A stretch of DNA of 63,980 bases, the filler included, from Fonticula-like sp. SCN 57-25 (taxonomy: Eukaryota), in NCBI GenBank assembly GCA_001724245.1. It is 4 parts of 4 records of this genome, joined end to end, with 100 filler letters (N's around TTAATTAATTAA, not from the genome) between each part and the next. Parts side by side here need not be neighbours in the genome. Positions count along the whole stretch, not along the records: positions 32,280 to 48,245 come from MEDX01000131.1; 3 more parts are not named here. One strand, given 5' to 3'. The position numbers and the translations under genes were made by a program. Of this stretch, positions 16,096-60,804 are shown piece after piece (positions within the stretch are counted from its first letter, which is position 1; the number at the start of each line of letters is the position of its first letter). Under the pieces are notes generated by a model. It was given only the letters and a program-made list of their open reading frames with translations, was not told the DNA's origin and searched no databases.

Positions 16096-16195
16096 NNNNN
16101 NNNNNNNNNNNNNNNNNNNNNNNNNNNNNNNNNNNNNNNTTAATTAATTAANNNNNNNNNNNNNNNNNNNNNNNNNNNNNNNNNNNNNNNNNNNN
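16096..16195. other. artificial contig linker N44-TTAATTAATTAA-N44
   Basis: 100-nt spacer with a palindromic six-frame-stop core. Confidence 0.97.
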
Positions 16196-32179: not shown

Positions 32180-32279
32180 NNNNNNNNNNNNNNNNNNNNN
32201 NNNNNNNNNNNNNNNNNNNNNNNTTAATTAATTAANNNNNNNNNNNNNNNNNNNNNNNNNNNNNNNNNNNNNNNNNNNN
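32180..32279. other. artificial contig linker
   Basis: N44-TTAATTAATTAA-N44. Confidence 0.97.
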
Positions 32280-32288
32280 CGCGCGCAG

Positions 32289-32634
32289 GGTGGAGGACCT
32301 CGTTTCGCGTACCCCAAGTGGGTCTGGTCGCCTTCTGGCGGGTGGTGGCCCGAGCCGCACGCGTGGAAGCGCAACACGGCCACGGCCGTCGTTGTCATGG
32401 CGCTTGTGCTTATCCCCATTTTCAAGTCGACTTCCGAGATGGAGACGCGCCCAATTGCGCCTCACCGCGCCATCCCGTCGTCCTCTTGGTCCAACGCCGC
32501 CGCCAAAACGGTCCGTCTTCATCATCATCCCTGTTTCGTTCCTCTTTAAGCTGTTTTACTTATCTTTGTGTTGTCCGTTACAGGGAGTCCGCGATGCCGT
32601 CCCGTCAACATCAGCGTCGTCGCACCACCATTAA
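32289..32634 (+). CDS. complex I NUUM/NDUFB6-like subunit (start exon missing)
   Basis: GGGPRFAYPKWVWSPSGGWWPEPHAWKRNTA + TM + ETRPIAPHRAIPSSSW. Intron 32511-32583. Confidence 0.75.
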
Positions 32635-32898
32635 ACATTATACAATTTGATTCATAGGTACTTTTTCGTGTGTCGGTCGGTAATACAAACCAAAAGAGCA
32701 TCTTTTCCTTTCCTTTCCCCTTTCCTTTTCTGGTCATTCTAACATGCGCGGGACGGGACCATAATAGTCTCAAAAATACTTAATAATTATAACATGAAAG
32801 GGTAGAAGCACTCGGTAGACACCGTCATTGGTACATGCACTGGTGGTGGAAGGTAACAAATAATAAGAAACTCTCAACACGTTTAAAGCACTTTTGCT

Positions 32899-34561
32899 TT
32901 AGTTTTCCTCGGGCGCGCTCTGCCTGCGCGAGCGCTGCTTGACGAGGAACGCCGCGTAGTCGCCGCTCTGCACGAACCGCGTGAACGAGTCGCGCTCCAT
33001 GAGGCCGTACACCTCGCGCTGCGCCTGATCAAACACAGTCACGTCGGGGTGATCGTCATCAAGGTTCCTGCCCAAAATGTCAGCGTCCACGTGCAAAAAA
33101 AGAAGAGCGAAAAGTGACGTACTTTGCTGCGCTGATCGTCATGCTGCGCGTCGGCGCCGAAATGTTGACTTCCATGAGCGCGCTCGATTTCAAAAAGGTG
33201 CCGACGACGTATTCGGCGTAGTGACGCGACGGCTGGCGGCGGTAGTTGTCCACGGCCTGCCAGAAGAGAAGGTTTTCGGCGGAGAACTCTTTGCGGACGT
33301 GCTCGAGGAAGAGAGTGGCGCCTTCGGGCGAATCGAGGAGAGCAGCAAGGTCATTCTAGAGAGAGGATCAGTAAAGTTGAAAAAGCGGCCAAAAAGACGA
33401 CGAACGACATCAAAAGGCATCAAAAAGACATCAGAAACATATCAAAAAATGACACTTTTGCGACCAATCCAAATATCAATACCGATCAAATCCCGATCAA
33501 ATTACAATCAAATCCTAAACAAGTCATTCTATTATTCCCAAATAAACGTACCGGCGAGTCAGGGAGGAATGTCTCCTGCGTGCCCGGCGACACCGGCGAC
33601 GCCTCATCGCCGTCAAACTCTGCCGACTTTTGCTTCTCCATCTGGCTCACGGCGAGCGGAAAGAGCGCCGCTGCGATGCGGCTCCCCCTCCTGCTTGCCG
33701 ACTCTGTCCCCGGGCGCACGCGCGGGTACCTGAGCTCAATCTGTGCCGCGGCCTGCCGCGCAATGTCCTTCAGCGAGCAGATCTGCTCGGCGGTGAGCGC
33801 TCCGGGCGCCTTGGAGTAGATCGCGATCGTGCCGATCGTCTGCCCGCTGCCATCGACGATCGCAAAGCCCGCGTAAAAGCGCACGTGGATGTCGGGGTTG
33901 GTCACAATCGGCCAGTCCTTGAAGCGCTCATCCTTGGACATGTCGTTGACGATGAGCTGCTGCTCGGGGAGCGTGATCGTGACGGCGCAGGGGGAGTGAT
34001 CGCGGGGGCCAGAAAGGTTGCTAGGGAAGCCGTACGTCGACTTGTACCAGAAGCGGCCACGGTCAAGGAGCGTGAGGGCGCTCAATTCGCCTATAAAAGC
34101 ATCACAATCATCGCTGGTTAGCAAGGATGCAGCACAGGGCCGACAGGAAAGATCGATGGCGTACACAGGGCGACGGTTGCGGCGAGACGGGTAAGCTCGT
34201 CAAAGACATTCTCCCTGGGGTTGCTGTACAGGATGCAACGCGAGATGAGGTTGCGCATGCGGCTTTCCTCGCTGGCGGGCTTCTCGGGGCGGCGGAACTG
34301 CGCCGTTTCGGTCGCGGCGTAGAACTCGTTGAGCGAATCACGCAACTTTTGCGCCGTTCCCGGCTCTGGCGTCGCCGCGGCCGTCTTCCTGTCGTCGTCC
34401 TTTACAAACTCGGTCGACTTTCCGCTGCTCGCGAGCGACGAGTTTGACGTGGCGGTCGACATGTTTTTCCGCCTGTTACCATCCTTGGCGAGCGCCGTGT
34501 CCGACCCCGAAGAGGCGAGCTCCACGTGCTTTGCCGATTGCTTCCCGCAACAGTTGCCCAT
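32899..34561 (-). CDS. N-acylated GAF + RGS domain protein
   Basis: MGNCCG start. GAF: FDELTRLAA..DMSKDERFKDWPIV..RFYAGFAI..IGTIAI. RGS: FLEHVRKEFSAENLLFWQAV..EVNIS..FDQAQREVYGLMERDSFTRF. Three introns. Confidence 0.85.
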
Positions 34562-35288
34562 CCTGCAAAATTAATGTAAAAGCGCAGTGCTTATAATGCG
34601 GCAGTGGAAGCTGAGCGCGATAAATAAGATTTCTGCACTCGCCACGACGCCTTGCGACTCGTTTCAGGAGGCGAAAGCAAGGAGGCCGGCGTAGATCTGG
34701 GGCACGGCGCAGACACGGGAGTGCCACACAGCGGAATGGTGAGCCCAAATCGCGGTCGGCCATCCTGATTGGCTGCATCCTTTAATTATTTCCTATTTTG
34801 GGCGATTCGATGGAAATGTCGCCCAAAAAGGAAAGAGATATGTAAATTGATTGGGGGGTTTTGATTGGGGGCTCGGACAAGCGGGCCAAGTGAAGCGACG
34901 AGGAAATGAATTCATCAAGGCCCGCGGCAACTGTCAAGGACGCCACGAGGCCACTTTGTGTTGGCTCATTACGCATGGCGCTGCGAAAAGTCGCCCATGT
35001 CGCATTTCGACACTTTCTCTGACCCATCAACCACGCGCGCTCACATTCCTCGTTTCGTGCCGTGATTGGCTAGTAATCGATCGTTCACACGGCTGCCACA
35101 CACATCGGCACATGCCTGCCACAGGCCTGTTGACCAAGCGTTGCCCACCGGGACTACTGGCGCGCACCTGCCAGAGGGGATCGACGTTGGACCGTTGGCG
35201 GCTGTGAGATCGACCGAGCGGATCGTGAGGTGCTGAACTGGAGTGTACGCTGTATTGGAGAGGACGTTGAGTAGACTATACTTTTGCG

Positions 35289-35636
35289 ATGGCGGTTGCC
35301 GAAAGGCCAAGGTACGCGCGCATTCGCTGCTGCCGCGTGATGCTGACTACGTCATGCTGCAGCGGGCGCATGAAGCGGCGATTGACAGAGGTCGACGAGG
35401 AAGAGGCGTCGAGTCCCGGTGATCCCGGCCATTATATGAAAAAGCTCACATTAGACGAAGGCCGCTCATTAATTGCCGGCGACGCTTCCCCTACGCACGA
35501 TGGCAAGTCACAGCCGTCGCTGCCGCCAACGCCATCCCCGTCGCCCATCGAGACCTACTACTACGAGATCAACATGCTGTTGCGGCGGGCGCACTTTGAG
35601 CGGCTAGAGCGCAACATGGATACCTATCGCTCATAG
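35289..35636 (+). CDS. FAM104/VCF-like small p97 cofactor candidate
   Basis: N-terminal KRR, disordered linker, C-terminal YYEINMLLRRAHFERL helix. One intron 35312-35362. Confidence 0.55.
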   Translation: MAVAERPRYARIRCCRVMLTTSCCSGRMKRRLTEVDEEEASSPGDPGHYMKKLTLDEGRSLIAGDASPTHDGKSQPSLPPTPSPSPIETYYYEINMLLRRAHFERLERNMDTYRS

Positions 35637-36195
35637 CGCACAGAGCGGGGGCGCGATACCCCGCCGTGCCTGTACACTATGTCTGCCATGTACGTACTCT
35701 TGCCTGTACAGTAAGTGTGTCTTTGTGCCGATTCATACTATTAATGTTCGTATCATTATGTGTTTATATATGTGATAATGTATTGACTCATGAACAAGTT
35801 CCTTTGAACCAAATAATTTGACAATTGTGTGCTTTGTCCATGTGCTATTGGGTGCGCCACCGAGCGCGGGAAACGGCACAATCAAACACAAACGCCTTAC
35901 ACAGTCCTCTTTTAAGCCACATAAACACACAAAAATAGGACAGTTTAGGCCACAAAAACACGATAATGTTCTTTTGTAAAGCCACTTTTGTTTCACTTTT
36001 GGACGCCCAAATGTCCATGTGGCGGCAAAGTCAAAGTGATACTCACGGCCATATCTACTTTATCTCGCATGATATATGTCCTTTGAATGTCCCGTTCCCT
36101 TTACTTTTCCCAGTTGCCACGTTTATCTTTAATAATCGCAATTGCATTCATATTAAGCCCTATACATCTTTTCCTTCATATATACTCCTCCCACT

Positions 36196-39100
36196 CTACC
36201 TCTCCTTCTTTGCGTCCTCGCCGCTCTCCCTGCGCCACCCGCCCGCCGCGTGCAGCGTGACAAGCGAGTTGTGCAGGTACTCTGCGAGCGCCTCGGCCGT
36301 CGGGTAGCTCGCGAGCACGGTCCCGTCGAGCTCGACGCCGTACACGCCGCGGACGAACGCGAGCAGCGACTGGACGCGGCGCTCGCGCACCTTTTCATTG
36401 AGCGATCGCGCAAGGACATCAAGATCCGTTCCACTGCCAATATCCACGTGGCTGTCCACATGGGCGTCCGCGTTGGCGTCGGCGTCGGCGTCGCTGCCAA
36501 AGAGCGTCTTTGCGACTTCGCTGATGCGGCGCTCGACATCGGCACGCGCGGGAACAATGTTATTTCCACCATTACCATTGCTATTTCCACCATTGCCGCT
36601 CAGCGATGCGGCGAGCGCGGCGAGATCCTGCGGGAGCGCGACGACGATGCGCACCGACGCCACGACAACGTGCGAGTTGTCAAAGTGCAGGCGCAGCTCG
36701 TACGTGCCGGCGGCCATCGGGAGGCGATCTCCCGAAAAGATCGCCTCGCCATCGGCATCGGCCGAGATGTAGCGCCAGAATCCGCGCGATGACGTCTTGG
36801 TGAACGTGTCGGCGCCGCCGCGCGCGGGCAGCGAAGACGACGAGGACGAAGAAGACGCCTCGGCGCCGTCGGACGAGGCGGCGGCGGCGTCAGAGTCGAC
36901 GCGGTAGAGGCCGATCCAGTCCTTTGCGGGATGGCCGGCGGGTGCGCGCCACTGTGCGCGGATGGGCTCGAGGAGGGTGACGGTGGGTGATGCGACGGTG
37001 AGAGAGTAGCCGCTCGTGTCGCGCGAGTTGAGTTCGTCAGAGACGCGGCTGGGGAAGGCGGTAAGTAACAAAGGAAACGGGTAAGAGAAGAGGAAGCAAA
37101 GACAAGGGGTCACTTTATCCAGATACAGACATATATCATACGGATACAGACAGATACAGATACAGATACATACACATACACATACACATACAGATACACA
37201 TACACATACATATACATATACATATACACATACATATACAGATACCCATACTCATACTGATACTCATACACTCATACTCATACCCATACCCATACACTCA
37301 TACACTTCTCATACCCAACACCCCCATACCCTCCTATTCCCATCCCATTTCCTTCCACTTCCTCTCCACGTACTATGCGATCCTATCGAATGCGTTCTCG
37401 ATCGTCGGCGCCGCCCTATTCCTCACGAAATCCTTCCCCCCCCCCCCACTGCACTCAACTTTTCCTGCACCTGCGGCGCCTTCACCTCCGCCAGCAAGCT
37501 CTTTGCCGACCCCGTCAGCTTCTCCACCTCCTTTACAATCTTTAGCGGCTTGATCTTTGTCATGATGGCCGTCTCGACGCCACTCTTGCTCCTCACATTC
37601 TCGCCATACAGCCTGCGCATATGCGGCTTTTCGACATACCTAATCACAGCGAATGTGCACAGCTGCGCCATGGCGGCGAGAATGACCATTGTCCAGCTGC
37701 TCGTCATGATTGCCTGCCCGTAAAACGCGGCGTGGCCAATGATTTTTTCGGGGTTGTTGACAAAGCGATAGATGCCAGTGTAGGTGGGCGGCGGCGGCGG
37801 CGCGTCGGGGCCGGAAATGAAAAAGTCGCCGTAGAACCAGCCGAATTCCTTGATGACTTGGAGGACTTCGACGGACGACCAGAGGTGGAGTGCGATGAGG
37901 ACGGCGCCGATGGTGTGCTTGAGGAGGGCGGTGCCGCTCGTCCACGAGGCAGCGTCCGGAAAAGTGTACAAGCTGAGCGCGCACAGCGAAAAGGAAACGT
38001 GCGTCATCGTCATTGACAGGTTGTAAATTCCCTTCCAGCTCTGGAAGGCGTCCTGCGCGCGGAAGCCATACTTTATAAAATGCGCCGTCCACAGCTGGCG
38101 CGTGCTCTGCAGGTGCAGCAGCGTGCCAATGCCAAACGTGTGGAAGAGGCGCCACGCAATGCAGTGCGCCACGTGGTACCACAGCGGCATGCCCATGAGG
38201 TACCCGACAACGGCGTACACGACGACGAGCAGCGTCAGGACGTCCGTGGCGCGGAAGGCGTCAAAGTTTTTCAGGGCGATCAGATCGCGGCGAAAGTAGG
38301 CCGAGGGGCCGCGGTAGAGCAGCTCGCGGTGGCGGCGCGCGCCTTCGTCCTCGCGCAGGCCAGAGTTGTAGATGCGGTCAATGTGCGGGTTCTCGACGAG
38401 GTAGAGGAAGGTGAACTGGAGGGCGTGCGCGGCGAGGCTCACAAAGAGGATCACGTAGGACTGCGAGAGGATGCACATGCCATAGTAGCCAATGTAGCCG
38501 ATAGAGTACATGGGGTGGGGGGCCATGAGGAAGACGCCGTCAAAGGTGAGCTCAGAGTCAACGAGGAAGAAAAAGTCGCCCCAATCTACAGGTAAAAAAT
38601 TGGGAAAAGGCGGGAAAAGTAGGGAAAGTGATAGGAAAAGTGGTCAAAAGTGGCGAAAGTGGTAGAAAAAGAAGTAAAAAGTGACAAAAAATAAGTAAAA
38701 AACATGGAATTAGTATAGTTTACCAACAAAAAGTTCCATGCGTACACCAGGCAAAGTCCTTGACGACGCGCAGGGCGTCGATCTTGATGTACCAGTTAAA
38801 GACGCACAGTCCAATGCCGATGACAAAGCGGGCAAGATCCCACAGCGACCACGCGTCCGGAATGTACACGTACGAAAAGACGCACAAAAAGTACGAGAAA
38901 AAGTCGTTGATCAGGATGATGTCGACGAGGCCGCGGAAGACGAGCCACGCATTGTACACCTCGGGGACAGCCTGCAGGATCGGTAAATCGCGTCAATGCC
39001 AGTGTAAAAGCGGGCGAAGCAGCGCGCAAAGCGAAAGAGACGCACGTTAAAGTCGTACTCGGGGCCCATCTTCTTCGTGAGCTCCCTGTTGAGGTACTCG

Positions 39101-39554
39101 CGCCACGGGGATCCCTCCTTGAGGTACCGCGAAAGGTACTTTGAGACGGCATGGTCATTCGACTGGATCCGGAGAAGGTAGCCGATGAAGCCGTTGTACG
39201 AGATGCGCCAGAAGGCGTACAGCATCACAAAGACATAGGAAGGGACCGCGCCGGTGACGTACAGCAGCATCTGTGATGCGGCAGGGTGGCATGGGGCAAT
39301 GGGGGCGCGTGGACAAGAGGAAAGAAAAGGGAGAAAAAGAGGCCGAATCAAGTTAATAAAGGGAAAGGCTATAGCCAAAACAAGACCAGGAGACGCACCT
39401 GAGCGAGGACAAGACCAATTGTAATGAGCTCAAACACGTTCCATGGCAGCGTGCGGATGGTCACGAGCAAGTCGTGCGTAATCGGCACGCGGAACTCGAC
39501 ATTGTCAAAGGTCCTCCCCAATGGGAGATCCGGCTTTGACGCTGCCTTGCTCAT
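36196..39554 (-). CDS. CHO2: fungal-type phosphatidylethanolamine N-methyltransferase
   Basis: FRVPITHD, YNAWLVFRGLVDIILINDF, KDFAWYWGDFFF, APHPMYSIGYIGYYG, ENPHIDRIY, FGWFYGDFF, KDWIGLYRV. Confidence 0.93.
37121..37325. repeat. intronic (GATACA/CATACA/CATACT)n hexamer microsatellite
   Basis: Degenerate 6-nt units inside a CHO2 intron. Confidence 0.85.
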
Positions 39555-39908
39555 TCTCTATCAGCTACACGCGAAATTACAGCTTCGCTCGCAGCAATAG
39601 TGCTCGTCGGCAGGTGAGCGTTCTAGATCGTGCGCAGAAAAAGGGCCCCGGCTTTATGTATGTCAAATGTTGCCCGCCGAAATGCCGCCGCCGTCTTTTG
39701 CCGCTCAGCCAATCAGAAGACGACACAGCGCTGCTCTTCACATGGCCAAAATCACATCCAACTTTTTGCCAGATATGAAAATCACACTCGATTTTGCACC
39801 TGACAACAAAATCACATGCGACTTTCTAAAGTCACATCCGATTTACTCATCCACGTGGCCGAATAGTGGTGTGTTTGTCTTGCACCTGCTGACTCTGCCT
39901 CAACCATC

Positions 39909-40637
39909 ATGTCGACCGAAGCTGACCTTTTGCCCCGCCTCGAGCAGGCGTGCGACCACCTTGTCCAGGACTCTGCGGCGACCAACTGGGGTGTGCTCAT
40001 TGATGAGGACAATGTCAAGGTCTTTCACCTGAAGGACAGCAAGCCCGACCGCCTCATGGGCCAGATCGTCGTCTCGGGCGACAGTACGACCGGTTTTGTG
40101 TTCCGGAATGGGCGACTCACGCGTGCTTTTCCAGTCGAGTCTGTTCTCCACGACCTGTACGACTTTGAGGCTCGCCGCAAGTGGGACACGACCCTCTCGG
40201 AAAAGTCGCATGTCGTCGAGTCTCTTTCGGACGACACGTCGGTTGTGTACATGTACATCCCCGGCCAGATGAGCGTGTCGGCCCGCGAGATGTTGAACGG
40301 CCGCCGCCGCCGCGCTCTCCCCGACGGCGCCGGCTACGTCGTCGCCCACAACAAGATCGAGTGGGCCAGCAAGCCCGTCACCAAGGACATTGTGCGCGCG
40401 TCCAACACTGACACTGGCTACGTCATCAAGAAGGTGCGCGATACATGCCGCGGCCGATTTCACCAACTGATCCCTTTTTTTTTTGCTTTATAGATTGACG
40501 ACAAGACCGTCAGCATCTCGTGGGTCCTCCAGACGGAGATTGGCGGCTGGGTCGGCTTCATCAACGTGCGCAATATCGCGTCCCAGAACCTCGCCAAGAT
40601 GCTCAAGGCGTTCCGCACGTACCGCGCCGGCAAGTAA
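39909..40637 (+). CDS. START-domain lipid-binding protein
   Basis: DLYDFEARRKWD, VSAREM, KDIVRA, LQTEIGGWV. Two introns. Confidence 0.85.
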
Positions 40638-40987
40638 GAACGAGTGATGAATGGGCGGAATTTGCGGCGATTTTGTGTCTATTTGATAAGCATCGCGCAC
40701 GCAGTAGAGTGTGCTGAGCGTCCCAGCATCAATATCATTTTTAAACCTTTTTTTTTGGGAGTAGTGGGTTGAAGTAAGATGAAAGATGCTGGAAAGATAA
40801 GAAGAAAGATGGCAAAAGTATAGTACTATATCAACTACCTTTTCATGCCTGCCACACTCATGTTACAAGCATGTCACACGCATGCCAGTATCATTATTTG
40901 CCCATATTGCCTGCTACTCAATCATGAAACATATATTGATCTCTGTCTGATCTCTGCGTGATCTACATGGTACAATTTCCGCCAATT

Positions 40988-42121
40988 TCACTCGTCCTTT
41001 GCATAGTCAGACTGCTCGTCCAGCGGCCGCCACTGCAGCGTCTCAATGCTCCCGCCGCGCAGCCCCGCGAGCACCGTCGGCACGCCGCCCGCCTCGATCG
41101 CGACGACATCAAACACCTTTTTCCCGCGCGTCAGCTACGAACAGCCAATCAAGAGTGTCGCACCTGCAGCTTTGTGGCAACCGTGTCGACGGTCGCCACC
41201 GCTTCGCCGCCCGCCGGCAGCGCCCACACGCACAGAAAGCCCGCCGCCTTGGCCGCCACGAGCCGCCCGTCCGGCAGGAACGAGACGGCGGTTGCCATCC
41301 CATGAGCGTCCACGTGACCGGGCAGGTCGATGATGTCGCCGGCATCGAGGGGGATGATGAGCGCGCGGCCATCGCCGAGGGCCGCCGCCAGCCGCCGCCC
41401 GTCCGCCGCAAAGGCGAGGCCGTACACGTCGGCGGCGTCGCCGGGGAGATCGATGGTGCGCGCGCTGCCGCCGATCGCCGTCGGGACGAGATCGACCGCG
41501 CCAAAGGTGACGCCGGCGCCGCCGCCAGCAGCCACGAGGCCGCCGTCAGGGCTAAACGCAACCGCACCGACCTTTCAAAGCAATATAGTTTAGTTTGCAG
41601 TTTGCGGGAAAGCGGCGTACATATGGAAGTGATGTGGGAATGTCGCGCTGGTGGGCCCACTGCGCATCATCTGAAAGGGTAAACAGCTGGAGGTTCGGGC
41701 CGAGGCCGCCGACCACAAAGGATCGGCTGTCGTGCGCAAACGTGACACACGAGTTGGCCGACGCGCTCTCAAAGCGCTGCGTCTCGGCCCAGTCGGACGC
41801 TGCCGAGCGGACGATCACGCGCTTGTCGTGGCCGACCGATGCCGCCCAGCGGCCATCAGGGCTCGCGGCCACCGATGACAAGAGCTCCTCGTGCGCGCCC
41901 TTAAAAATAAACTCAAGGGAAAGAGCGCCGCTGTCAGAGACCGTCCACACGCGAAGAGAATTGTCGTGACCGCCGCTCACGATGCGACGCGCATCGCCCA
42001 CACCACCGCATGACAGACGGGCAATCTGCAGGATGCCATCAGATGAACAGCTTCAAAGGCAAGGAAAACGTACGTCAGATGTGTGTTTGTGAACACGCGA
42101 CCGCGACTGCCACACGTTCAT
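40988..42121 (-). CDS. WD40-repeat protein
   Basis: IVSGGHDNSLRVW, AHEELLSSVAASPDGRWAASVGHDKRV, GLAFAADG. Three introns; start inferred. Confidence 0.75.
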
Positions 42122-42277
42122 TGTTAGAAATACGCCCTGTGACGCCCTCGCTCGCTCTCGTCAGCAGAAAGGCGGCGGCAGGAGGCGAGCCGTGGTGACA
42201 AATCCGTGACAATTCAGTTCACTTTGATGACACACCATTCGACCGTTTGGCGCCAATTTTTTTTGAACGGGATCTGA

Positions 42278-42792
42278 ATGAGTTTCTTTGGGTTCTTTCG
42301 GCGGCTCGTGGGCGAGGCGCCGCCCGCCGCGGGTCTTCAGCCGGGCTCGGCGAGGTTAGCCAAGGAGCGTCTCTCTTTGATCCTTCAGCACAGCTCGACC
42401 AACAAGGCGCTCGTTAACGACTTTATGATGGTCGAGATGCACAAGGACATTTTCGCCGTTATCCAGGTGCGTTTCAGCAGCTATTCATAGTCTTTTCAGT
42501 GCCTCTTTAGCATTATTTGAGTATTTAAACGCTGTTAACTGACACATTTTGCGTTATTTTTGCCTTTTTTTGGTCTTTTTCTCGTTCTTAGAAGTACATC
42601 CCTGTCGACATTACCGATGTCAACATTTCGGTGAAGAAGGAATCTGGCGTCGACATTTTCGAGATGCAGGTGGCGCTCCCCGCCGGTCGCGAGGGCGCCT
42701 CGGTCAACATTACGCTCAAGCCAAAGGCGGAATCGTCGGAAGGCGCCGCTGCCGGCAGCGCGGCCTCAACGCCGCCGCCTGCCTCAGCCTAA
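42278..42792 (+). CDS. minE: MinE cell-division topological specificity factor (nuclear, spliced; presumably mitochondrial)
   Basis: Exons 42278-42466 + 42592-42792 give 129 aa: MSFFGFFRR..SARLAKERLSLIL..MHKDIFAVIQ|KYIPVD..DIFEMQVALP, collinear with bacterial MinE motifs. Confidence 0.88.
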
Positions 42793-43135
42793 TCACGTAA
42801 TTCCTTTTGATTTGTGAATGATGATTGTGCGAAAAGCGCACCTTTTATGAGCTTATTGCACTATAATGACAAAAGTTAATGTAGTTTGAATTGCTAAACA
42901 TATCTGTGAAACATTGAAATGGGGCGGCATTTAAGTATCAGAAATTTCCTTTCGACCTTGTGGCACGTGCCTCATTGGCGGGATCTTAGTTCTGCGGATC
43001 ATCTGCCTTTTCATTCTCTCGCCACACCTCTTCAAGAGCCAATTCCACATATAAAATGCACTTTATTTATATTAAACAACCTTAAACGTCCATCAAAACT
43101 GTCTCTTTGATCGTCCATACATCATCCTTACATCT

Positions 43136-44269
43136 TTACTGGCCGATCGTCTGACCCACCCTGACGACCTCGCCCTCGCCCACATTAAACTTGAACTCTT
43201 TCCTGTTCTCAAACACAACCACGATACAGCTGCCCATCTGGAACATGCCCACCTCGTCGCCCCTCTTCAGCGGCACGCCCCCCTTTCCAAACACGCGCGT
43301 CCTGACGGGATCGCCCGCGCGATCCGTCACCCTGTTCGTGTCGATTGCGTCATCAAAACCGATCTTGATCGAGCCGACATTTGTGGCGCCAATGGCGGCA
43401 AAGGCCATGTAGCCGCGCTCCCATTGGCCGGCGAGGACGACGCGCTCGTTAAAGTTGAAGAGGCCGCGCGCGGCGCGCACCATGAGCGGGCTCACAGACA
43501 GCAGCTCGCCGGCGTAGTGGCGGCGCACATTGACGGTCCACGTGGCGGGGGAGTGGAAGCGGTGGTAGTCGCCGGGGCCGAGGTAGATCACGCAGTAAAA
43601 GAGATCGTTCTGGCTGTTTTTGGCGGTGGCGACGCGGGGGCGCACAGAGGGGCTGCCGTCGGCAAGCGTCTCGTACACAAAGTCGTCGCCGAGGAAGCCG
43701 TCGAGGCTGTAGTTGCTGCCCTTGATCTGCTCGACGAGCGGGCCGCGCACACGGCCGACCTGCATCACGCGGCCGTCGGCGGGCGATGAGAGAGCAGTGC
43801 TGGGGCCGCTCGAGGCGGGCCACGAGCGCGCGCCGGACTTGAGGTGGCGCGTGAAAAAGAGCGACATAGAGGGGTACTCGTCGAGCGGGCGCTCAACTTC
43901 GTCGAGGTTGCCGTTGAAGAAGGACATCCACGCCTTGTACACGGGGGATCGCATCGAGAGGGGGAGCTCGGTCGACATGACGGCGCCAAAGAGACGCGAT
44001 GTCAGGCGAAGAGGGAGAGCGCGAAGAACAGTGACGAGCGTGTTGTGAGAAAGGCTGTCATCGGGAGAGACGGGGAGCGTGTGCAGGTAAAAGAAGCCGC
44101 CAACGATGCCGGCGCCGGCGACGGCAGATGAGACAGCAATGAATCGGCGGCCTTTCGAGGAAGAAGAAGAGGAACCAAAAGAGGAAGATAGGGGGCGCGC
44201 AGATAGAAGGAGAGGAGCGCGCGAAAGAGCGCCGCGCTGGGCGAAATGCCGGCAGAGTGACGCGGCCAT
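43136..44269 (-). CDS. PSD1: mitochondrial-type phosphatidylserine decarboxylase
   Basis: Presequence-like N-terminus + TM, FFTRHLK, SPADG, IYLGPGDYHRFHSP, NERVVL, GATNVGSI, FQMGSCIVVVF. Confidence 0.93.
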   Translation of the reverse strand: MAASLCRHFAQRGALSRAPLLLSARPLSSSFGSSSSSSKGRRFIAVSSAVAGAGIVGGFFYLHTLPVSPDDSLSHNTLVTVLRALPLRLTSRLFGAVMSTELPLSMRSPVYKAWMSFFNGNLDEVERPLDEYPSMSLFFTRHLKSGARSWPASSGPSTALSSPADGRVMQVGRVRGPLVEQIKGSNYSLDGFLGDDFVYETLADGSPSVRPRVATAKNSQNDLFYCVIYLGPGDYHRFHSPATWTVNVRRHYAGELLSVSPLMVRAARGLFNFNERVVLAGQWERGYMAFAAIGATNVGSIKIGFDDAIDTNRVTDRAGDPVRTRVFGKGGVPLKRGDEVGMFQMGSCIVVVFENRKEFKFNVGEGEVVRVGQTIGQ

Positions 44270-44440
44270 GGCGACGGACGGCGACGGGACGCAGCGGCGT
44301 TGCCAATGGTGTGTCACGCTTTAAACCGACCCGAAACCGACTTTTGTGAAACCGACTCGAAACCGACTGCACGTGAAACACGATTTTGTAAACAACGACC
44401 GAAGTGTGACATTCCCGACAGACCCGATCAGGGGCGGGGA

Positions 44441-46090
44441 ATGAGCGTAGAGTCGGATCCGCTGCTTGTAAACAGTCTTCGGCAGTATGATGACAAGAAT
44501 GAGGTGCAGCAGCCGGTGCCGTCGCTGCGCGAGTCGACGCATCCGCATCTTTTAAAGTCGTCTGATCTTGGCATTGCCGAGCATCGCACCGAGGCCAGGA
44601 TGCGCTTCTCCGTGTTCAATCTTGCCAACACGATTGTCGGCGGCGGCATCCTCGCGCTTCCCTACGCCTTTATGGTGCGTTTCACTTGAGATAACTTTGT
44701 GCGTCTAATGCTTGCTGCAACAGCTGTGCGGCGTTGTGGTCGGTTTCGGGATCCTTCTGGCCGTGTGCCTGCTTGCCGGCTTTTCACTGCATCTCCTCAC
44801 CGAGATCGCCGAAGTGCTGCAGCTTTCCTCGCGCGCGTCGTACCGCGAGATCTCTTACCGCGCATTCGGCACCGCCGGCGTCGTGGTGAGCGGCCTCGTT
44901 GTGATCACGACTTGCTTTGGCATCCTCGCATCGTACCTCGTCATCGTCGGCGACAGCCTCGTTGAGCCGATCGCCCTCGCGGCCGACGCCGATCCCGACT
45001 TTGTGCGCACCGTGCTCCTGATCTGCACCGCCGTCATGCTCGTGCCGCTCGCATGCCTGCGCTACCTCAACCACCTGCGCTACGCGAGCGTCGTCGCAGT
45101 GGTCGCATCATTTTTCTTTCTCGTTTGCTTGATCGTCAGGAGCACCGAAGAGATCGCCGACGGCGGCCTCGAAAACTGTGAGAATACAGAGCGGGGCTGC
45201 GTCGTATTGGCCGACTGGTCAACAACAATTCTTAGAGCAATTCGTACGCGCTCCATTGCCGTGTGCCTTGCTAACTGTTTTTTAGCGCTTCTGTGCTTTT
45301 CTTTTACGTGCCAAACAAACTTTTTCTCCACTTACGAAGAGCTCGCCGCGCCGTCGCCGCGCCGTATCCGTAAAGTCTATTCACGGTACTGATTCCCGCC
45401 TGATTTAAATCTGATTTCTGATTCCCGCGCGTTTTTCGCTCTCATTTCTCTCATTTGTGCCGCCAATGTTTCCTCTACAGCGCTCTTTTTGCGTGCCTTG
45501 TAATATATACGACATCAGGTCTCTTTGGCTACCTCGAGTTCCGCTCCGAAACAAAGAGCATGATCCTTCTCAACTATTCGCCTTCCGACCCGCTCATGCT
45601 CCTCGCGCGCATCGGTACGTCCATTCCCGCGCACTTTTCCCGCCCCTTTTCTTACCATTTTAACCTCTTTTCCCGTCCAGCCGTCTCTATAGAAATTATT
45701 CTCGGCCTTCCCATGACCGCGCACCCCCTCTTCAACACACTAGACTCTCTCCTCTTCCCCAACCGCGACTTTTCCTACCCCCGCCGCCTCATTGAAGTCC
45801 TCATCGTCTTTGGCGTCGCGCTCGCCGTCGCGCTGCTCGTCACCGACGTGGCGCTCATCTTTGGCCTTACGGGCGCGCTCGCGTGCACGACACTTTCTTT
45901 CATTCTTCCCGCGCTTTTTTACTTGAAGCTGCGGCCGAGGAGAAAGGCGTGGTGCAGGAGCAGGTCACGTGTGGGGGCGGCCACGCTGCTTGCTATTGGC
46001 GCGTTTATTCTGGTGTCGTCGACGACGGTTACGCTGATGGACCAGGTGAGGGCGGGCGACGCGGCGCCGACGCCGTCGCAGGCGTTCTAG
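44441..46090 (+). CDS. SLC38/AVT-type amino-acid transporter
   Basis: FNLANTIVGGGILALPYAF, FSFTCQTN, FGYLEF..ILLNY, FILPALFY; many TMs. Confidence 0.9.
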
Positions 46091-46637
46091 AGCAGCTTTG
46101 CCGGTTTGAACGCCCTTTATTGTATATTTTGCGGTTCAAATGCGATCAATTAGACCTTTTTTGTACACTTTGTGTCACCTTTTATTTCCTTTTACGTCTG
46201 TTTTGTTCGTGTTCGCTTTGTTTTTTCCTCTTTTTGGCCTTATTACGCCTCGATTGCGCCATTCGTGGGCGTTCATTGCACTTTATTGCGACCATGACGT
46301 GTCATCTTTGCCAATGTCATCTTTCGCTTTTTTTGGCACCGCGCACGCTGATTGGTGGATCTGGATTTCCTCCACGCTGATTGGTCCTACACAAATTAGC
46401 AAAACGTTCAAATCGCCGGCACGCTTTCCCTTTCCTTGGAAAAGTTCCGCTTTTCAGAGACCGCGCCGAGTGCCTTTTGTCTCATATAACGGATCGGATC
46501 GCCGCGGCCGTTCCACTTTTCGCGACCGCCTTTTCGACCCTCTCTGCGCACTAGCCAACAGCTTTGCAAGGACTTTTCGCTCGCTACTACCCCCCGCACA
46601 GCGCTTTTTTCTGTTTTTTTCTTTCGCTTGTTCCATC

Positions 46638-47912
46638 ATGGGCAAGTCCAAGGTGCGCCGCCATGCCGCCATGCCCGCGCATGCTAACGCCCCGATCCCC
46701 TCAGTCGAAGGAGATGGCGCTCCACAAGGTGATTATGGTCGGCTCTGGTGGCGTGGGCAAGTCGGCGCTCACGCTCCAGTTCATGTACGGCGACTTTGTA
46801 GAGGTTTACGATCCCACGAAAGCCGACAGCTACCGCAAGAAGGTTAGCCTCGATGGCGAGGATGTTTTGATAGACATCTTGGACACGGCGGGCCAGGAGG
46901 AGTACGCCGCCATCCGCGATAATTACTACAGGAGCGGGGAGGGATTCCTCTGCGTCTTTTCGATCTGCGAGCTGGAATCGTACACGGCAACCGCCGACTT
47001 TAGGGATCAAATCGCGCGTGTCCTCGATGACGATACGGTGCGTTTCATTTTTAAACCCTAAAATTATATGAAAGTGATTGTGAAAGTGAAAGTCAAAGGG
47101 ATTATGAAGGAATATTTTCACTTTTGTGTATGGGATCGCATGTCAATCTGAATGACCATGTGTGTGGTCAACATGGTCATCATCTTGATGGTGGTCATTG
47201 TTGTGTTATAATGAAAAGTATAGTTATTAAGTATGTCTAGTATTGTTTATTGTCATGTATTGGGTTTTATTTCAGTACTTTTGTCTCCTATATTGTGCAG
47301 TGTCGATCCGTTTACGTCAACGTGTGATAAACATTCCTGTCCACCATACTCTCCCTTTCAGTTTGCAGTTTGCACTAACACTTCTTCTTCTTCAGGTGCC
47401 GTTTGTGCTTGTTGGCAACAAGGCTGACCTCGACTCGAACCGCAAGGTGACGCAGGACGAGGCGCAGCGCCGCGCAGAGTCGTGGCACTGCGACTACATG
47501 GAGACGTCGGCAAAGACAAAGTGCGTCACGTGATCATACATGTGCTGTATATTATGGTATTGTTGTGGGTGTAGTAGAATTAATTGTATGTTTGTGGCGT
47601 GTATTGGTATTTATCATAGTTTATATTCGAATTTCATGTCATTTTTTGTTATTTTTCTTTGAATGTTTCTTCATTGTAATGTTGATTTTTGTTTATATTT
47701 GTTGTTTATTTCTTGTTTCATATTCATTTTTGTGTCTTTTTATATCATTTTATATCATTTCTCTATCATTTCTTAAGGGGCACTTTAAACTGACTTCTTC
47801 CAGACAAAATGTGAACGAGGTTTACTTTACGCTGTTGAGGCGAATTGCGCAGCGCAAGTCAAAGCAGGCCGAATCGGCCGCCAAGAAGAGCAAAAAGTGC
47901 ATGCTGCTGTAA
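46638..47912 (+). CDS. RAL: Ral-type Ras-family GTPase
   Basis: [68 protein letters not shown]. Three introns. Confidence 0.88.
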
Positions 47913-48080
47913 GGCACATGGCCACGTGGTGAGTGAACTAGGAAAAGAAGGAAAAGAGATTTTATATTAAAAAGAGATTATTTTGGTCGTTTTTGCCATT
48001 TGTTTTTATTATGGCTTTTTGTTTTTCGCCTTTTTTAAACTATATTTGGTAATATAATAATTGCTATTTGCATCAATAGT

Positions 48081-48200
48081 GAATAATGGGCGGTGAAAAA
48101 CGACTGAAAATGGGCGGTGAAAAATGGGCGGGAAAACGGAAAAGTGAATGAAAACGGGCGGGAAATGACACTTTGAATAGGAAGAATGGCGGGAAATGGT
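48081..48200. repeat. degenerate AATGGGCGG(T/G)GAAAA tandem repeat near contig end
   Basis: About five imperfect copies. Confidence 0.5.
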
Positions 48201-48245
48201 ACTGAAATGAGTGGACATTGGCTACATAGAGACCATAATTGGCAG

Positions 48246-48345
48246 NNNNNNNNNNNNNNNNNNNNNNNNNNNNNNNNNNNNNNNNNNNNTTAATTAATTA
48301 ANNNNNNNNNNNNNNNNNNNNNNNNNNNNNNNNNNNNNNNNNNNN
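48246..48345. other. artificial contig linker
   Basis: N44-TTAATTAATTAA-N44. Confidence 0.97.
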
Positions 48346-48477
48346 ATTAATACCGTGCGCAACTATTTTAAAGGGGCTTCATGATTCATTTTGCTCCGAA
48401 TCTTCCCGCCAGATCGACGTCCACGTGGACCGTCTGAGGATTCGCGAGCGCACGGAGCTCGCGGGGGCGTGCTGGGC

Positions 48478-50664
48478 ATGCCGATGCGGTACAAGCCGCA
48501 TGCTGCTCTATCCAGCGCTGGCAACGCGAGAGATGTTGCGAGCATATCGCTCAACCGCCTTCGGGCAATGATCTTGCGAAGTTTTTCGCTTTCATATGGT
48601 CTGGCGATCACTCTTCTCGTTCTTGCCAACAACTTTGCCGTTTTCGAGGTTGTAACGTTTGCCGTCATCATTGCCTACAGCTTTTATGTGGCATTTTGGT
48701 CGCGTCGCTTGGAGGACGTCAAATTCCACGGACTTGTACTATTGCTTGTATACAAGGCTTCTCTAAGTGCGCTTCTGTTTCGCTGCGGGGCGGCGACTGC
48801 CATCCACATCTACTTTCACCTTGGCAACTTTGTCTTTCCCTTGCTGGGCGCCACGTTCCGTGGCACGCGACTAGCGCTGTCCATGGCCGCCTACATCATT
48901 GTGGAGACTATTGTTCTGTACGGCATTTCTCCGGCTGAGAGCGCGGACCACTTTGGCCTTCTCGATTTGTCACCTGAGCAGTATTTGTTTGTACGCGTGG
49001 TCGTCGAGATCAACCTTACTATCCTGTCGACCGTCTTTGGCATCTCTTTCCACCTGTACGCCTCCAAGGTAATCACCACGCTTGCGGAAATGTCCGAGGT
49101 GCGCCGTCGCTTCATCTCCAACATGAACCACGAGATCCGCACTCCGCTCGTGGGTGTGCTCGGCATGGCCGAGCTGCTTCTCGCCGAGGAGCAGCTGTCG
49201 CCGTCGCTGCGCAGCAAGCTCGAGGTCATTGCGTCGAGCGGCGAGGCGCTGTTGCACCTCGTCAACAACATTTTGGACCTGAGCCGGATCGAGGCGCAGG
49301 CGGTCGTTCTCGAGCACCGCGCCGTCGACGTCGGACAGCTCGTCTCGGGCGTCCTCGGCATGTTTGAGGCGAGCGCGCTCGCAAAGGGCCTCCAGATGAT
49401 TGCCCACTTTGAGCCTGGCATTCCCGGGCAGATCATGACAGACCCGTACAGACTCATGCAGGTGCTCAACAACCTCGTTGGCAACGCCATAAAGTTCACG
49501 GAGCGCGGCCGCGTCACCATGACCGTCGACGTCCTCGACGCGCTCTGGCAGGACGAAGAAGAAGCTTCCGCAGCGCAGGGCGCGCAGCACCACCACCTTC
49601 CACTTCAACAGGGGCCATCGCTCGACGCGGCCACGAGCGCCGTGCCCGGCCAGCGCTACATCTCCTTCAGTGTCAAGGATACGGGTATCGGCGTCGCGCG
49701 CGGCGACGGCATCATCCTCTTCCAGCCGTTCTCGCAGGCCGACACGAGCACGACGCGGCGATACGGCGGGTCCGGCCTCGGCCTCGCGCTCTGCGCCGAC
49801 ATTGCGCGGCTCATGGGCGGCAAGGTCAGACTCGTCCGCGGCGACGCACCGGGCGCCGAGTTCCAATTTGCGCTGCCGATCATTCTGCCGGAAGACGGCG
49901 AAGGGGAGGCCCTGCCGCTCGGGGAGGGCGGCGAACAACTCTTCTTTGGCAGCGAGAGCGCCACCTCTGACTCGCCTCAAATTGGCAGCGCGCGCGGAAG
50001 CAACGTGGGCGACGCCACGTGGCAAAGGAGTGTCGTATCGGACCGCTTCGGCAGCGAGGAGAGCCTCGCCAGCGCTCGGTCGCAGCGCGCCGCCGCCGCC
50101 GCCGCTGGCGCCCACCAACACCACGTGGCCGCCATCAGCAGCAGCGCCGGCTCAGGCGCGTGGCAACGCACATTGAGCGCCTCGGACGCGTCGCCTGCGA
50201 GCGGCCGGCGGTCCACGCGGCTGCAGGCCAAGGCGCAGGCGCAGGCGGGTGCCCACATGGCCCCGTCTGTCAGCGCCCGCGTGCTCGTTGCAGACGACAA
50301 CCCGGTGAATGCGCTCGTGATGCAGCGGCAAATGGAGCGCATCGGCTACTCGTACACGATTGTCGGGTCCGGGGGCGAGGCCGTGGACGCGTACCTGTCG
50401 GACGACGGGCACACGTATGACGTCATCATCCTCGACTTGGACATGCCTGGGATGGACGGGCTGCAGGCGGCGCGCGCCATTCGGCAGGCCGAGATGGATG
50501 GCGGCAGCGGGCGCAGGGTGCCCATCGTCGGACTGTCCGCGGCAGACCCGGACATTGCGACAGAGTGCAGGAGAGCTGGGATGGACGACGCGCTTGTAAA
50601 GCCGCTCAACATGGCGGCGCTCAAGGAGTGCGTAGAGAGGTACCTGAAGCCAAAACGGCTTTGA
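48478..50664 (+). CDS. membrane hybrid histidine kinase (TM region-HisKA-HATPase-REC)
   Basis: MNHEIRTPL, NLVGNAIKFT, DTGIG, FSQADTSTTRRYGGSGLGL, VADDNPVN..DLDMPGMDG..KP. Intronless; start approximate. Confidence 0.93.
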   Translation: MPMRYKPHAALSSAGNARDVASISLNRLRAMILRSFSLSYGLAITLLVLANNFAVFEVVTFAVIIAYSFYVAFWSRRLEDVKFHGLVLLLVYKASLSALLFRCGAATAIHIYFHLGNFVFPLLGATFRGTRLALSMAAYIIVETIVLYGISPAESADHFGLLDLSPEQYLFVRVVVEINLTILSTVFGISFHLYASKVITTLAEMSEVRRRFISNMNHEIRTPLVGVLGMAELLLAEEQLSPSLRSKLEVIASSGEALLHLVNNILDLSRIEAQAVVLEHRAVDVGQLVSGVLGMFEASALAKGLQMIAHFEPGIPGQIMTDPYRLMQVLNNLVGNAIKFTERGRVTMTVDVLDALWQDEEEASAAQGAQHHHLPLQQGPSLDAATSAVPGQRYISFSVKDTGIGVARGDGIILFQPFSQADTSTTRRYGGSGLGLALCADIARLMGGKVRLVRGDAPGAEFQFALPIILPEDGEGEALPLGEGGEQLFFGSESATSDSPQIGSARGSNVGDATWQRSVVSDRFGSEESLASARSQRAAAAAAGAHQHHVAAISSSAGSGAWQRTLSASDASPASGRRSTRLQAKAQAQAGAHMAPSVSARVLVADDNPVNALVMQRQMERIGYSYTIVGSGGEAVDAYLSDDGHTYDVIILDLDMPGMDGLQAARAIRQAEMDGGSGRRVPIVGLSAADPDIATECRRAGMDDALVKPLNMAALKECVERYLKPKRL

Positions 50665-56025: not shown

Positions 56026-57983
<1,958 letters not shown>

Positions 57984-59357: not shown

Positions 59358-60804
59358 ATGGTACGTGCAGGGAAAGGGCATGCTGGACTGTGGGGATGTG
59401 CCAAGTGCGTCGGATGCACCAGGAGATGCGCATGCCGTTTGGATGATGCCTAGATGCTCGCGGTTCCTGATTCTTATGGAGGATGGGTATTGTGCGATGC
59501 GATGGCGCATCCCTGTGCATCCGACCGCTTTGGCGCATCCTCGCAGTGTCCCAGTGGGCATCCATCGCTTTTGTGCAGTTGTCTGATGTGTGTGTGTCTT
59601 TGTTTCATAGTCTCACCGCAAGTACGAGGCCCCGCGCCACGGTTCTCTTGGCTTCAAGCCGCGCAAGCGCGCTGCCCGCCATCGCGGCCGCGTCAAGTCG
59701 TTCCCCCGTGACGACAAGACCAAGCCTTGCCACCTTACCGCTTTCCTCGGTTACAAGGCCGGTATGACTCACATTGTCCGCGATCTTGAGCGCCCTGGCT
59801 CCAAGATGCACAAGAAGGAGATTGTTGAGGCCGTCACCATCATCGAGACCCCGCCGATGACCGCCGTCGGTGTTGTCGGCTACGTCGAGACCCCCCGCGG
59901 TCTCCGTTCGCTCACCACCGTCTGGGCTGAGCACCTCAGCGATGAGGTCCGCCGCCGCTTCTACAAGAACTGGTACAACAGCAAGAAGAAGGCCTTCACC
60001 AAGTACGCCCAGAAGTACACCAAGGACAAGAAGTCGATCGACCGCGAGCTCGAGCGCATCCGCAAGTACTGCACGGTCGTCCGCCTCATCGCCCACACCC
60101 AGATCCGCAAGGCCAAGGGTGTTGGACAGAAGAAGGCCCACATTGCCGAGCTCCAGATCAACGGTGGCTCTGTCGCCGACAAGGTCAAGTTCGCCGTCGA
60201 CCGCTTCGAGAAGGACATCCTTGTCTCGGAGGTCGTCTCCCAGGACGAGCTCATTGACATCATCGGTGTCACCAAGGGTCACGGTTACGAGGGTGTGACC
60301 AAGCGTTGGGGCACGAGCAAGCTCCCGCGCAAGACTCACCGTGGTCTCCGCAAGGTTGCTTGCATTGGTGCGTGGCACCCGGCCCGCGTCAGCTTCACGG
60401 TTGCCCGCGCTGGTCAGGACGGTTACCACCACCGCACTGACGTCAACAAGAAGGTCTACCGCGTCGGCCAGGCCATCCACACCGTTGACGGCAAGGTTAT
60501 CAAGAACAACGCGTCGACTGAGCACGACCTCACCGACAAGAGCATCACCCCTCTCGGTGGCTTCCCCCACTATGGTGTTGTCGACCAGGACTTCATCATG
60601 ATCAAGGGCTCGTGCGTCGGTGTCAAGAAGCGCGTCCTCACCATCCGCCGCTCGCTCCGCACTCACTCCAAGCGCTGGGCTTCGGAGAAGGTCAGCCTCA
60701 AGTTCATCGACACCTCGTCCAAGTTCGGCCACGGCCGCTTCCAGACTGCCGAGGAGAAGAAGAGCTTCATGGGTGCCCTCAAGAAGGACAAGATCGATGC
60801 CTAA
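59358..60804 (+). CDS. RPL3: 60S ribosomal protein uL3
   Basis: [52 protein letters not shown]. Intron 59361-59610. Confidence 0.98.

Follow-up and report, generated by a model that had tools for sequence, protein, structure and literature searches.

The locus at positions 42278–42792 raises the question of how MinE, a component of the bacterial Min division system, comes to be encoded by a split gene in a protist labelled Fonticula-like, and to which lineage that protist belongs. Mitochondrial Min proteins mark lineages that keep the ancestral bacterial way of organelle division, and every carrier that is added helps to define the points, and the number of times, at which dynamin-based fission replaced Min. 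In this study, we analyzed the gene within the window, that is, the whole stretch of DNA of 63,980 nucleotides, which is a metagenomic composite of four pieces of approximately 16 kb. Because the window is composite, statements that two genes lie on the same contig are valid only inside one piece. The first spacer truncates an M1 peptidase gene, which has no continuation on the far side. The features are as follows.

16096–16195, 32180–32279 and 48246–48345: three identical spacers of 100 nt each, built as 44 N, TTAATTAATTAA and 44 N
32280–48245, no strand assigned: MinE-bearing piece, delimited by spacer mapping, with its gene content from Pfam matches
42278–42466, plus strand: MinE exon 1, 63 codons, 3′ end ...ATCCAG at 42466
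42278–42313, plus strand: N-terminal amphipathic segment MSFFGFFRRLVG, hydrophobic moment 0.58, two Arg
42467–42591, plus strand: spliceosomal-type intron, 125 nt, phase 0, with GTGCGT donor, pyrimidine tract and TAG acceptor
42592–42792, plus strand: MinE exon 2, 66 codons and the stop codon TAA (42790–42792)

Based on the reading of the sequence, the gene starts with an ATG at 42278, straight after an in-frame TGA, and its spliced reading frame of 63 and 66 codons encodes 129 amino acids. Exon 1 contributes the amphipathic segment (residues 1–12), which a short linker rich in Ala and Pro connects to the MinD-contact region PGSARLAKERLSLILQ, and it also encodes the initial half of a helix. 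Exon 2 supplies the remaining helix, two beta strands reaching ...EMQVALP (which ends at 42681), and a C-terminal tail of 36 residues rich in Ala, Ser, Pro and Gly (42682–42789). The intron between them has a G+C content of 35%, against approximately 55% in its surroundings. The original prediction had joined 42466 to 42592 to obtain a 129-residue protein with the motifs MSFFGFF, SARLAKERLSLIL, KDIFAVIQKY (interrupted by the intron after Q) and EMQVALP. All four motifs are present in the exon translations, and the coordinates and gene model proved correct, with the two halves of the MinE profile abutting at the junction and the orthologues carrying an intron at the same position. The same prediction described an extra low-complexity C-tail and no separate presequence; the tail is present, a long presequence of the canonical kind is lacking, and the MinE motifs begin at residue 1.

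The family assignment was examined with profiles searched against each exon. Against Pfam PF03776 (68 positions), residues 24–63 of exon 1 align with profile positions 1–37 (24.0 bits, E 3.9e-5), and residues 1–30 of exon 2 align with positions 38–68 of 68 (13.3 bits). Each exon taken singly falls below the Pfam gathering score of 25 bits, and their rough sum of 37.3 bits lies above it, this sum being the added scores of separately searched exons rather than one whole-protein score. The matches are thus collinear, abut one another and span the profile from 1 to 68. Since an exact abutment of the profile halves at the proposed junction is not expected by chance, it strongly supports the splice as well as the family assignment. 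Similarly, NCBIfam NF001422 (87 positions) is matched at 13–51 by exon 1 (26.0 bits) and at 52–83 by exon 2 (18.4 bits), giving a sum of 44.4 bits, under the equivalog cut-off of 58. For TIGR01215, the scores of 22.5 and 12.4 bits add up to 34.9, under the cut-off of 49.3. As the NCBIfam equivalog cut-offs are not reached, the protein is a divergent MinE and not a bacterial-type equivalog by the NCBI thresholds.

Solved structures point to the same family. The best match of exon 1 is 3ku7_A, named "Cell division topological specificity factor", and the three best matches of exon 2 are the MinE chains 6u6r_A, 6u6q_A and 2kxo_A, which bear the same name. Additionally, each of the three nearest Atlas clusters (scores of 0.81–0.83) is composed of 100% PF03776, which we treat as a lead only. 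Aligned with E. coli MinE (b1174, locus L004), the protein is identical at 26 of 86 positions, including AKERL and the helix motif KDI..VI.KY. In the MinD-contact region, which together with the roles of its residues we take to correspond to approximately residues 13–26 of E. coli MinE with the motif A-K-E-R-L, LAKERL of the window aligns with IAKERL of E. coli and VARDRL of the orthologues. The helix of the dimerisation (topological specificity) domain reads KDIFAVIQKYI, against KDILEVICKYV in E. coli, and the beta strands carry ...ISV.. and ..DIFEMQVALP, against ..ISILELNVTLP. Collectively, these alignments indicate that the gene encodes a divergent yet complete MinE.

Orthologues place the intron in a wider family. 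A phmmer search of exon 1 against 1.84 billion representatives returned three proteins at E <= 0.001, namely the window's own read-through ORF and two ORFs from metagenomes, P0242 with 65% and P0243 with 61% identity. These two match positions 1–37 of Pfam MinE, and their similarity to the window ends right after ...VIQ; across the window protein, P0242 and P0243, the contact region is invariant or conservatively changed. The search of exon 1 against longer proteins gave no match at E <= 0.01, a 63-residue query having little power at such a database size, and exon 1 alone gave none among metagenome contigs. When the alignment of P0242 and P0243 (A1) was used to scan JGI metagenome contigs, three loci (L001–L003, G+C 62–71%) emerged, which carry a three-exon orthologue. 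Exon 1 of these loci also ends in ...VIQ and is followed by GTGCGG; exon 2 consists of 13 codons, RYLPVELDDVTIS, the counterpart of KYIPVDITDVNIS in the window; and the last exon opens with (V)KKDRGMDIFEMQITLP. A second, phase-1 intron follows the 13-codon micro-exon in these stretches.

L001, 5304–5536: stretch with the second intron
L002, 583–817: stretch with the second intron
L003, 4163–4397: stretch with the second intron

The window gene is missing this second intron, so an intron has been lost or gained within this MinE family. The first intron interrupts the same codon boundary in lineages whose proteins are 48–50% identical overall. This shared position supports a genuine, spliceosomal-type intron that has been retained in orthologues, and P0242 and the L001–L003 group appear to add at least two more members of the clade with the same intron-bearing MinE. 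In L001 and L003, the upstream neighbour is a C2H2 zinc-finger protein. On these sequence comparisons, from which splicing is deduced, we consider the gene model and the MinE family assignment secure, and the observation of an intron-containing eukaryotic MinE gene is confirmed as real at that level.

In the MinE core, L001 and L002 differ by eight synonymous and no nonsynonymous substitutions, and L001 and L003 by seven synonymous and two nonsynonymous ones. The introns of L001 or L002 are 47–73% identical to those of L003, against 89.5% for the coding sequence. We also compared the window with contigs of four public runs over 41500–44500. A variant strain in run X4 shows no differences in the covered parts of exon 1 (42278–42400 and 42439–42466), and record 11 of this run has 17 substitutions and one insertion, all intronic (42484–42548). 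In exon 2, the four listed differences (42711, 42732, 42747 and 42756), out of six in all in record 12, are third-position synonymous changes, and the 3′ flank has 17 differences and nine gaps. Records from run X8 pass from exon 1 into the intron; we read them as genomic DNA, silent on splicing. Collectively, the pattern of substitutions supports purifying selection on MinE.

The orthologues begin with MLRWLGRLFG, which has a hydrophobic moment of 0.67 and precedes a longer Gly/Ala linker, and L001–L003 have no acidic residue in their first approximately 30 residues, resembling a presequence. In the window protein, an acidic residue already occurs at position 13, the first in the sequence. We infer that the N-terminal segment is the counterpart of the membrane-targeting sequence of bacterial MinE and the sole candidate import signal; it is probably a membrane anchor and possibly an import signal. 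Between this segment and the contact region sits a variable Ala/Pro/Gly linker that is absent in bacteria, and the C-terminal tail of the window protein is not conserved in L001–L003. By alignment, the linker and the tail are lineage-specific and poorly conserved. This unusual layout, with a variable linker placed between the amphipathic segment and the contact region, raises the question of how a single short segment could serve both import and membrane binding.

Taking these observations together, we think it likely that the locus is a nuclear, two-exon gene for a mitochondrial MinE, carried by a deep-branching eukaryote that is unsequenced and lies near the opisthokonts. If it works like the mitochondrial Min systems of protists, the protein would be imported into the mitochondrial matrix and would use its conserved LAKERL contact region to bind MinD-ATP on the membrane. 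It would then stimulate the MinD ATPase, so that MinC and MinD are displaced from mid-organelle, and their clearance would let the FtsZ ring assemble where the organelle divides. That the protein is mitochondrial, that MinD, MinC and FtsZ accompany it and that it works in this way are all inferred from that analogy. The elements through which bacterial MinE acts on MinD are all kept and are under purifying selection, and a canonical role is the most economical reading.

The host of this gene deserves particular attention. A survey from 2015 is said to have found Min components in jakobids, heteroloboseans, a malawimonad, stramenopiles, amoebozoans, a breviate and an apusomonad. Apusomonads and breviates are the nearest outgroups of the opisthokonts. 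The eukaryotes with the present gene family branch near the animal-fungal stem, and the placement of the host would bear directly on the timing of the opisthokont Min loss. The original prediction had argued that, if the host is an opisthokont, the gene extends the ancestral mitochondrial Min system into a lineage thought to have lost it, and it had pointed to Ral, CHO2 and NUUM on the same contig. The MinE piece does carry genes for Ral and a CHO2-like protein (two PEMT stretches), but NUUM was not located; its other genes encode RGS/GAF, START, WD40 and phosphatidylserine decarboxylase (PSD) proteins and an amino-acid transporter. The best solved-structure match of Ral is RalA (195 bits, against 136 for HRas). 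The fourth piece holds genes for RPL3, an ATP sulfurylase/APS kinase fusion, a hybrid histidine kinase and ELMO, two of which bear on the host.

56748–57980, plus strand: ATP sulfurylase with C-terminal APS-kinase domain, a single ORF
59611–60801, plus strand: RPL3, nearly intron-less

The MinE exon 1 ORF and the PSD ORF were both observed on contigs of at most 18,026 nt. The G+C content of the four pieces is 55–58%, and composition-normalised tetranucleotide correlations are 0.86–0.94 between pieces, 0.76–0.90 between halves of one piece and 0.52–0.69 for L001–L003. The four pieces plausibly come from one genome, the fourth being tied to the MinE piece by composition only. The hybrid histidine kinase (HisKA, HATPase_c and receiver domains) is encoded at 48385–50661 on the plus strand, and a GAF-domain ORF at 33489–34199 on the minus strand lies beside an RGS-domain ORF. 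Signalling equipment of the histidine-kinase, GAF and RGS kinds is typical of fungi and amoeboid protists and absent in animals.

We regard it as a tentative possibility that the host is a true opisthokont, of nucleariid grade or from an unsampled holomycotan or holozoan stem, in which case Min survived into Opisthokonta and was lost later more than once. Besides the Ral and CHO2-like genes next to MinE, several similarities lean this way. The best named relatives of PSD, which lies on the MinE piece, are chytrids, Basidiobolus, Mucoromycota and animals (42–48% identity), and the next best match after the window's own protein has 45% identity. For RPL3, the closest of the 120 matches listed is an environmental protein (78% identity), and the best named ones are early-diverging fungi and holozoans (72–76%). 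Amoebozoan-named sequences are absent from the 120 matches listed in the PSD search and from the 120 listed for RPL3. The ATP sulfurylase fusion is matched best by 1i2d_A and 1m8p_A, which we take to be the Penicillium enzyme, with 620 bits across the whole fusion, against 436 bits for 2gks_A and 192 for animal PAPS synthase chains. Its domain order, with the APS kinase at the C-terminus, is presumably of the fungal type, and the fusion could serve as a host marker. Against solved ribosomes, RPL3 scored between 495 and 637 bits; its Atlas look-up was uninformative on taxonomy, a search of genome contigs with PSD found no match, and none of the window ORFs scanned proved to be EF-1alpha.

The trees, in contrast, argue against a firm opisthokont placement. 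In the careful RPL3 tree (43 rows, LG+C20), from which Plant_Cocos (end branch 2.11), a long S. japonicus fusion and some environmental rows had been dropped, Fungi with Rozella and aphelids (98/97) and Holozoa (95/92) form two clades. The window stands outside both, in a basal comb between them and plants, together with ten environmental rows, which are nine environmental proteins and a row labelled Euplotes. A quick, second RPL3 tree had put the window on the fungal side with an SH-aLRT of 92, but the AU test turned up a better tree lacking this grouping, and the careful search did not bring it back. When Fungi and Holozoa were constrained to group without the window, the likelihood improved over that of the free quick tree (lnL +6.18), and the constraint was not rejected (p-AU 0.749). 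In the PSD tree, rooted on two plants, the window takes an unsupported basal position, being part neither of Fungi (100) nor of the animals. The same displacement affects a genuine aphelid, so the tree is powerless at such depth. Moreover, the RPL3 and PSD trees were built without amoebozoan, apusomonad, breviate or nucleariid sequences, and RPL3 and the ATP sulfurylase lie on another piece than MinE.

Some rows of these trees call for comment in their own right. In a first RPL3 tree, a row labelled Anthurium (P0158), taken as outgroup, fell among Glomeromycota, and its rooting was discarded; the Euplotes-labelled row, P0139, groups with the environmental sequences related to the window. Contamination of the transcriptome data probably explains both labels. 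Approximately ten environmental RPL3 lineages share the basal position of the window between plants, Holozoa and Fungi, which suggests a diverse unsequenced protist assemblage. Nuclearia thermophila has a reported G+C content of 44%, against 55–58% here, a weak pointer away from that species.

With RPL3 in the basal comb, a window-excluding constraint that is not rejected (p-AU 0.749) and a PSD tree without resolution, the marker trees fall short of showing membership in Fungi plus Holozoa. The opisthokont host and the extension of the Min system into Opisthokonta, as proposed in the original prediction, are therefore not established by these trees, the more so as RPL3 and MinE occupy different pieces. 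The data fit a lineage near the base of the opisthokonts, outside Fungi with Rozella and aphelids and outside the sampled Holozoa. By its best RPL3 identity of 78% among the matches listed, the host would belong to no sequenced lineage. That the carrier is an unsampled lineage inside or directly sister to Opisthokonta, still running mitochondrial Min/FtsZ division, is accordingly a claim we hold as doubtful. If it is true, Min/FtsZ was lost only once Holomycota and Holozoa had separated, or several independent losses occurred within them, and a protist clade widespread in wastewater, soil and freshwater is without a genome on record. One bioreactor run contains 0.99 of the sampled words of the window, and parts of it occur in metagenome runs from wastewater, aquatic, "fungus" and soil sources. 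Over 41500–44500, X5 and X8 (a "fungus metagenome" run and a run whose organism name is a code) contain pieces of read length that are identical to the window, with word depths of 8–27, and the organism seems to travel with other samples.

Less probable still is an orphan or horizontally acquired MinE, which would be of bacterial origin, would have gained introns and would play another role without MinD. No MinD, MinC or FtsZ domain occurs among the 57 window ORFs scanned against Pfam, so MinE could be an orphan. The protein also has no clear presequence, its lineage-specific linker and tail suggest remodelling, and just three among the 1.84 billion representatives resemble exon 1 at E <= 0.001. 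However, the intron position is common to lineages that are only approximately half identical in protein, and any transfer would for that reason be old. The family motifs (A1) were found in no bacterial, archaeal or viral genome scanned, the bacterial part being a pattern-limited scan of 185,579 species. Furthermore, purifying selection on the MinD-contact motif is hard to explain without MinD. We therefore rate such an origin as improbable.

There is only a very slight chance that the host is an alga, perhaps a secondarily colourless one, and that its MinE is of the plastid type and derives from a cyanobacterium. Plastid MinE genes of plants and algae are likewise nuclear, intron-containing and organelle-directed. 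However, the window protein has no extension of transit-peptide length, the PSD and RPL3 of the host are opisthokont-like and not plant-like, and the 57 scanned ORFs include no plastid-related gene. Bacterial contamination, chimeric assembly and an ORF arisen by chance are practically negligible as explanations: the window is indeed made of four metagenome pieces, but MinE lies well within one of them, flanked by eukaryotic genes (WD40, PSD, CHO2-like and Ral), its profile matches are collinear, its intron is conserved in orthologues, and a 1274-nt contig of run X2 (42427–43700) links it to PSD with zero differences, with identical pieces in other runs, in keeping with the exclusion of contamination in the original prediction.

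The reading of the gene as a nuclear, mitochondrial MinE can finally be set beside the known Min systems. Bacterial MinE (PF03776, b1174; 2kxo_A, 6u6q_A and 3ku7_A) and the window protein share one domain order, in which an N-terminal hydrophobic or amphipathic segment is followed by the AKERL contact region, the KDI..VI.KY helix and two strands ending in ..LP. The summed PF03776 score of the window exons is 37 bits, against 86.3 bits for E. coli MinE. Unlike bacterial MinE, the window family has an Ala/Pro/Gly linker of 10–20 residues before the contact region and a low-complexity tail, of 36 residues in the window and approximately 75 in L001–L003. Moreover, the window gene is nuclear, split by an intron and outside any minCDE operon.

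The mitochondrial MinE of protists is the closer parallel. It is likewise a bacterial-type MinE encoded in the nucleus of a heterotrophic eukaryote, with a presumed role in the matrix together with MinC, MinD and FtsZ, and its likeness to the window protein stands at the level of description, not of sequence comparison. In the literature searched for MinCDE or MinD in opisthokonts, Holomycota and nucleariids, we found no report of an opisthokont Min system. According to the cited passages, the ancestral Min apparatus survives in scattered protist lineages (PMC8134430, PMC7050145, PMC4989108), with Andalucia godoyi and Stygiella incarcerata among the cases of mitochondrial MinE (PMC7050145, PMC4989108). 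The same passages, with those of a further source, bear out the persistence of Min in some protists that the original prediction had stated, describing a patchy retention and an absence from diplonemids and kinetoplastids (PMC8134430, PMC7050145, PMC4989108, PMC12699882). Set in this company, the gene is a further nuclear, presumably mitochondrial, protist MinE from a lineage without a genome on record, and this is the more promising lead.
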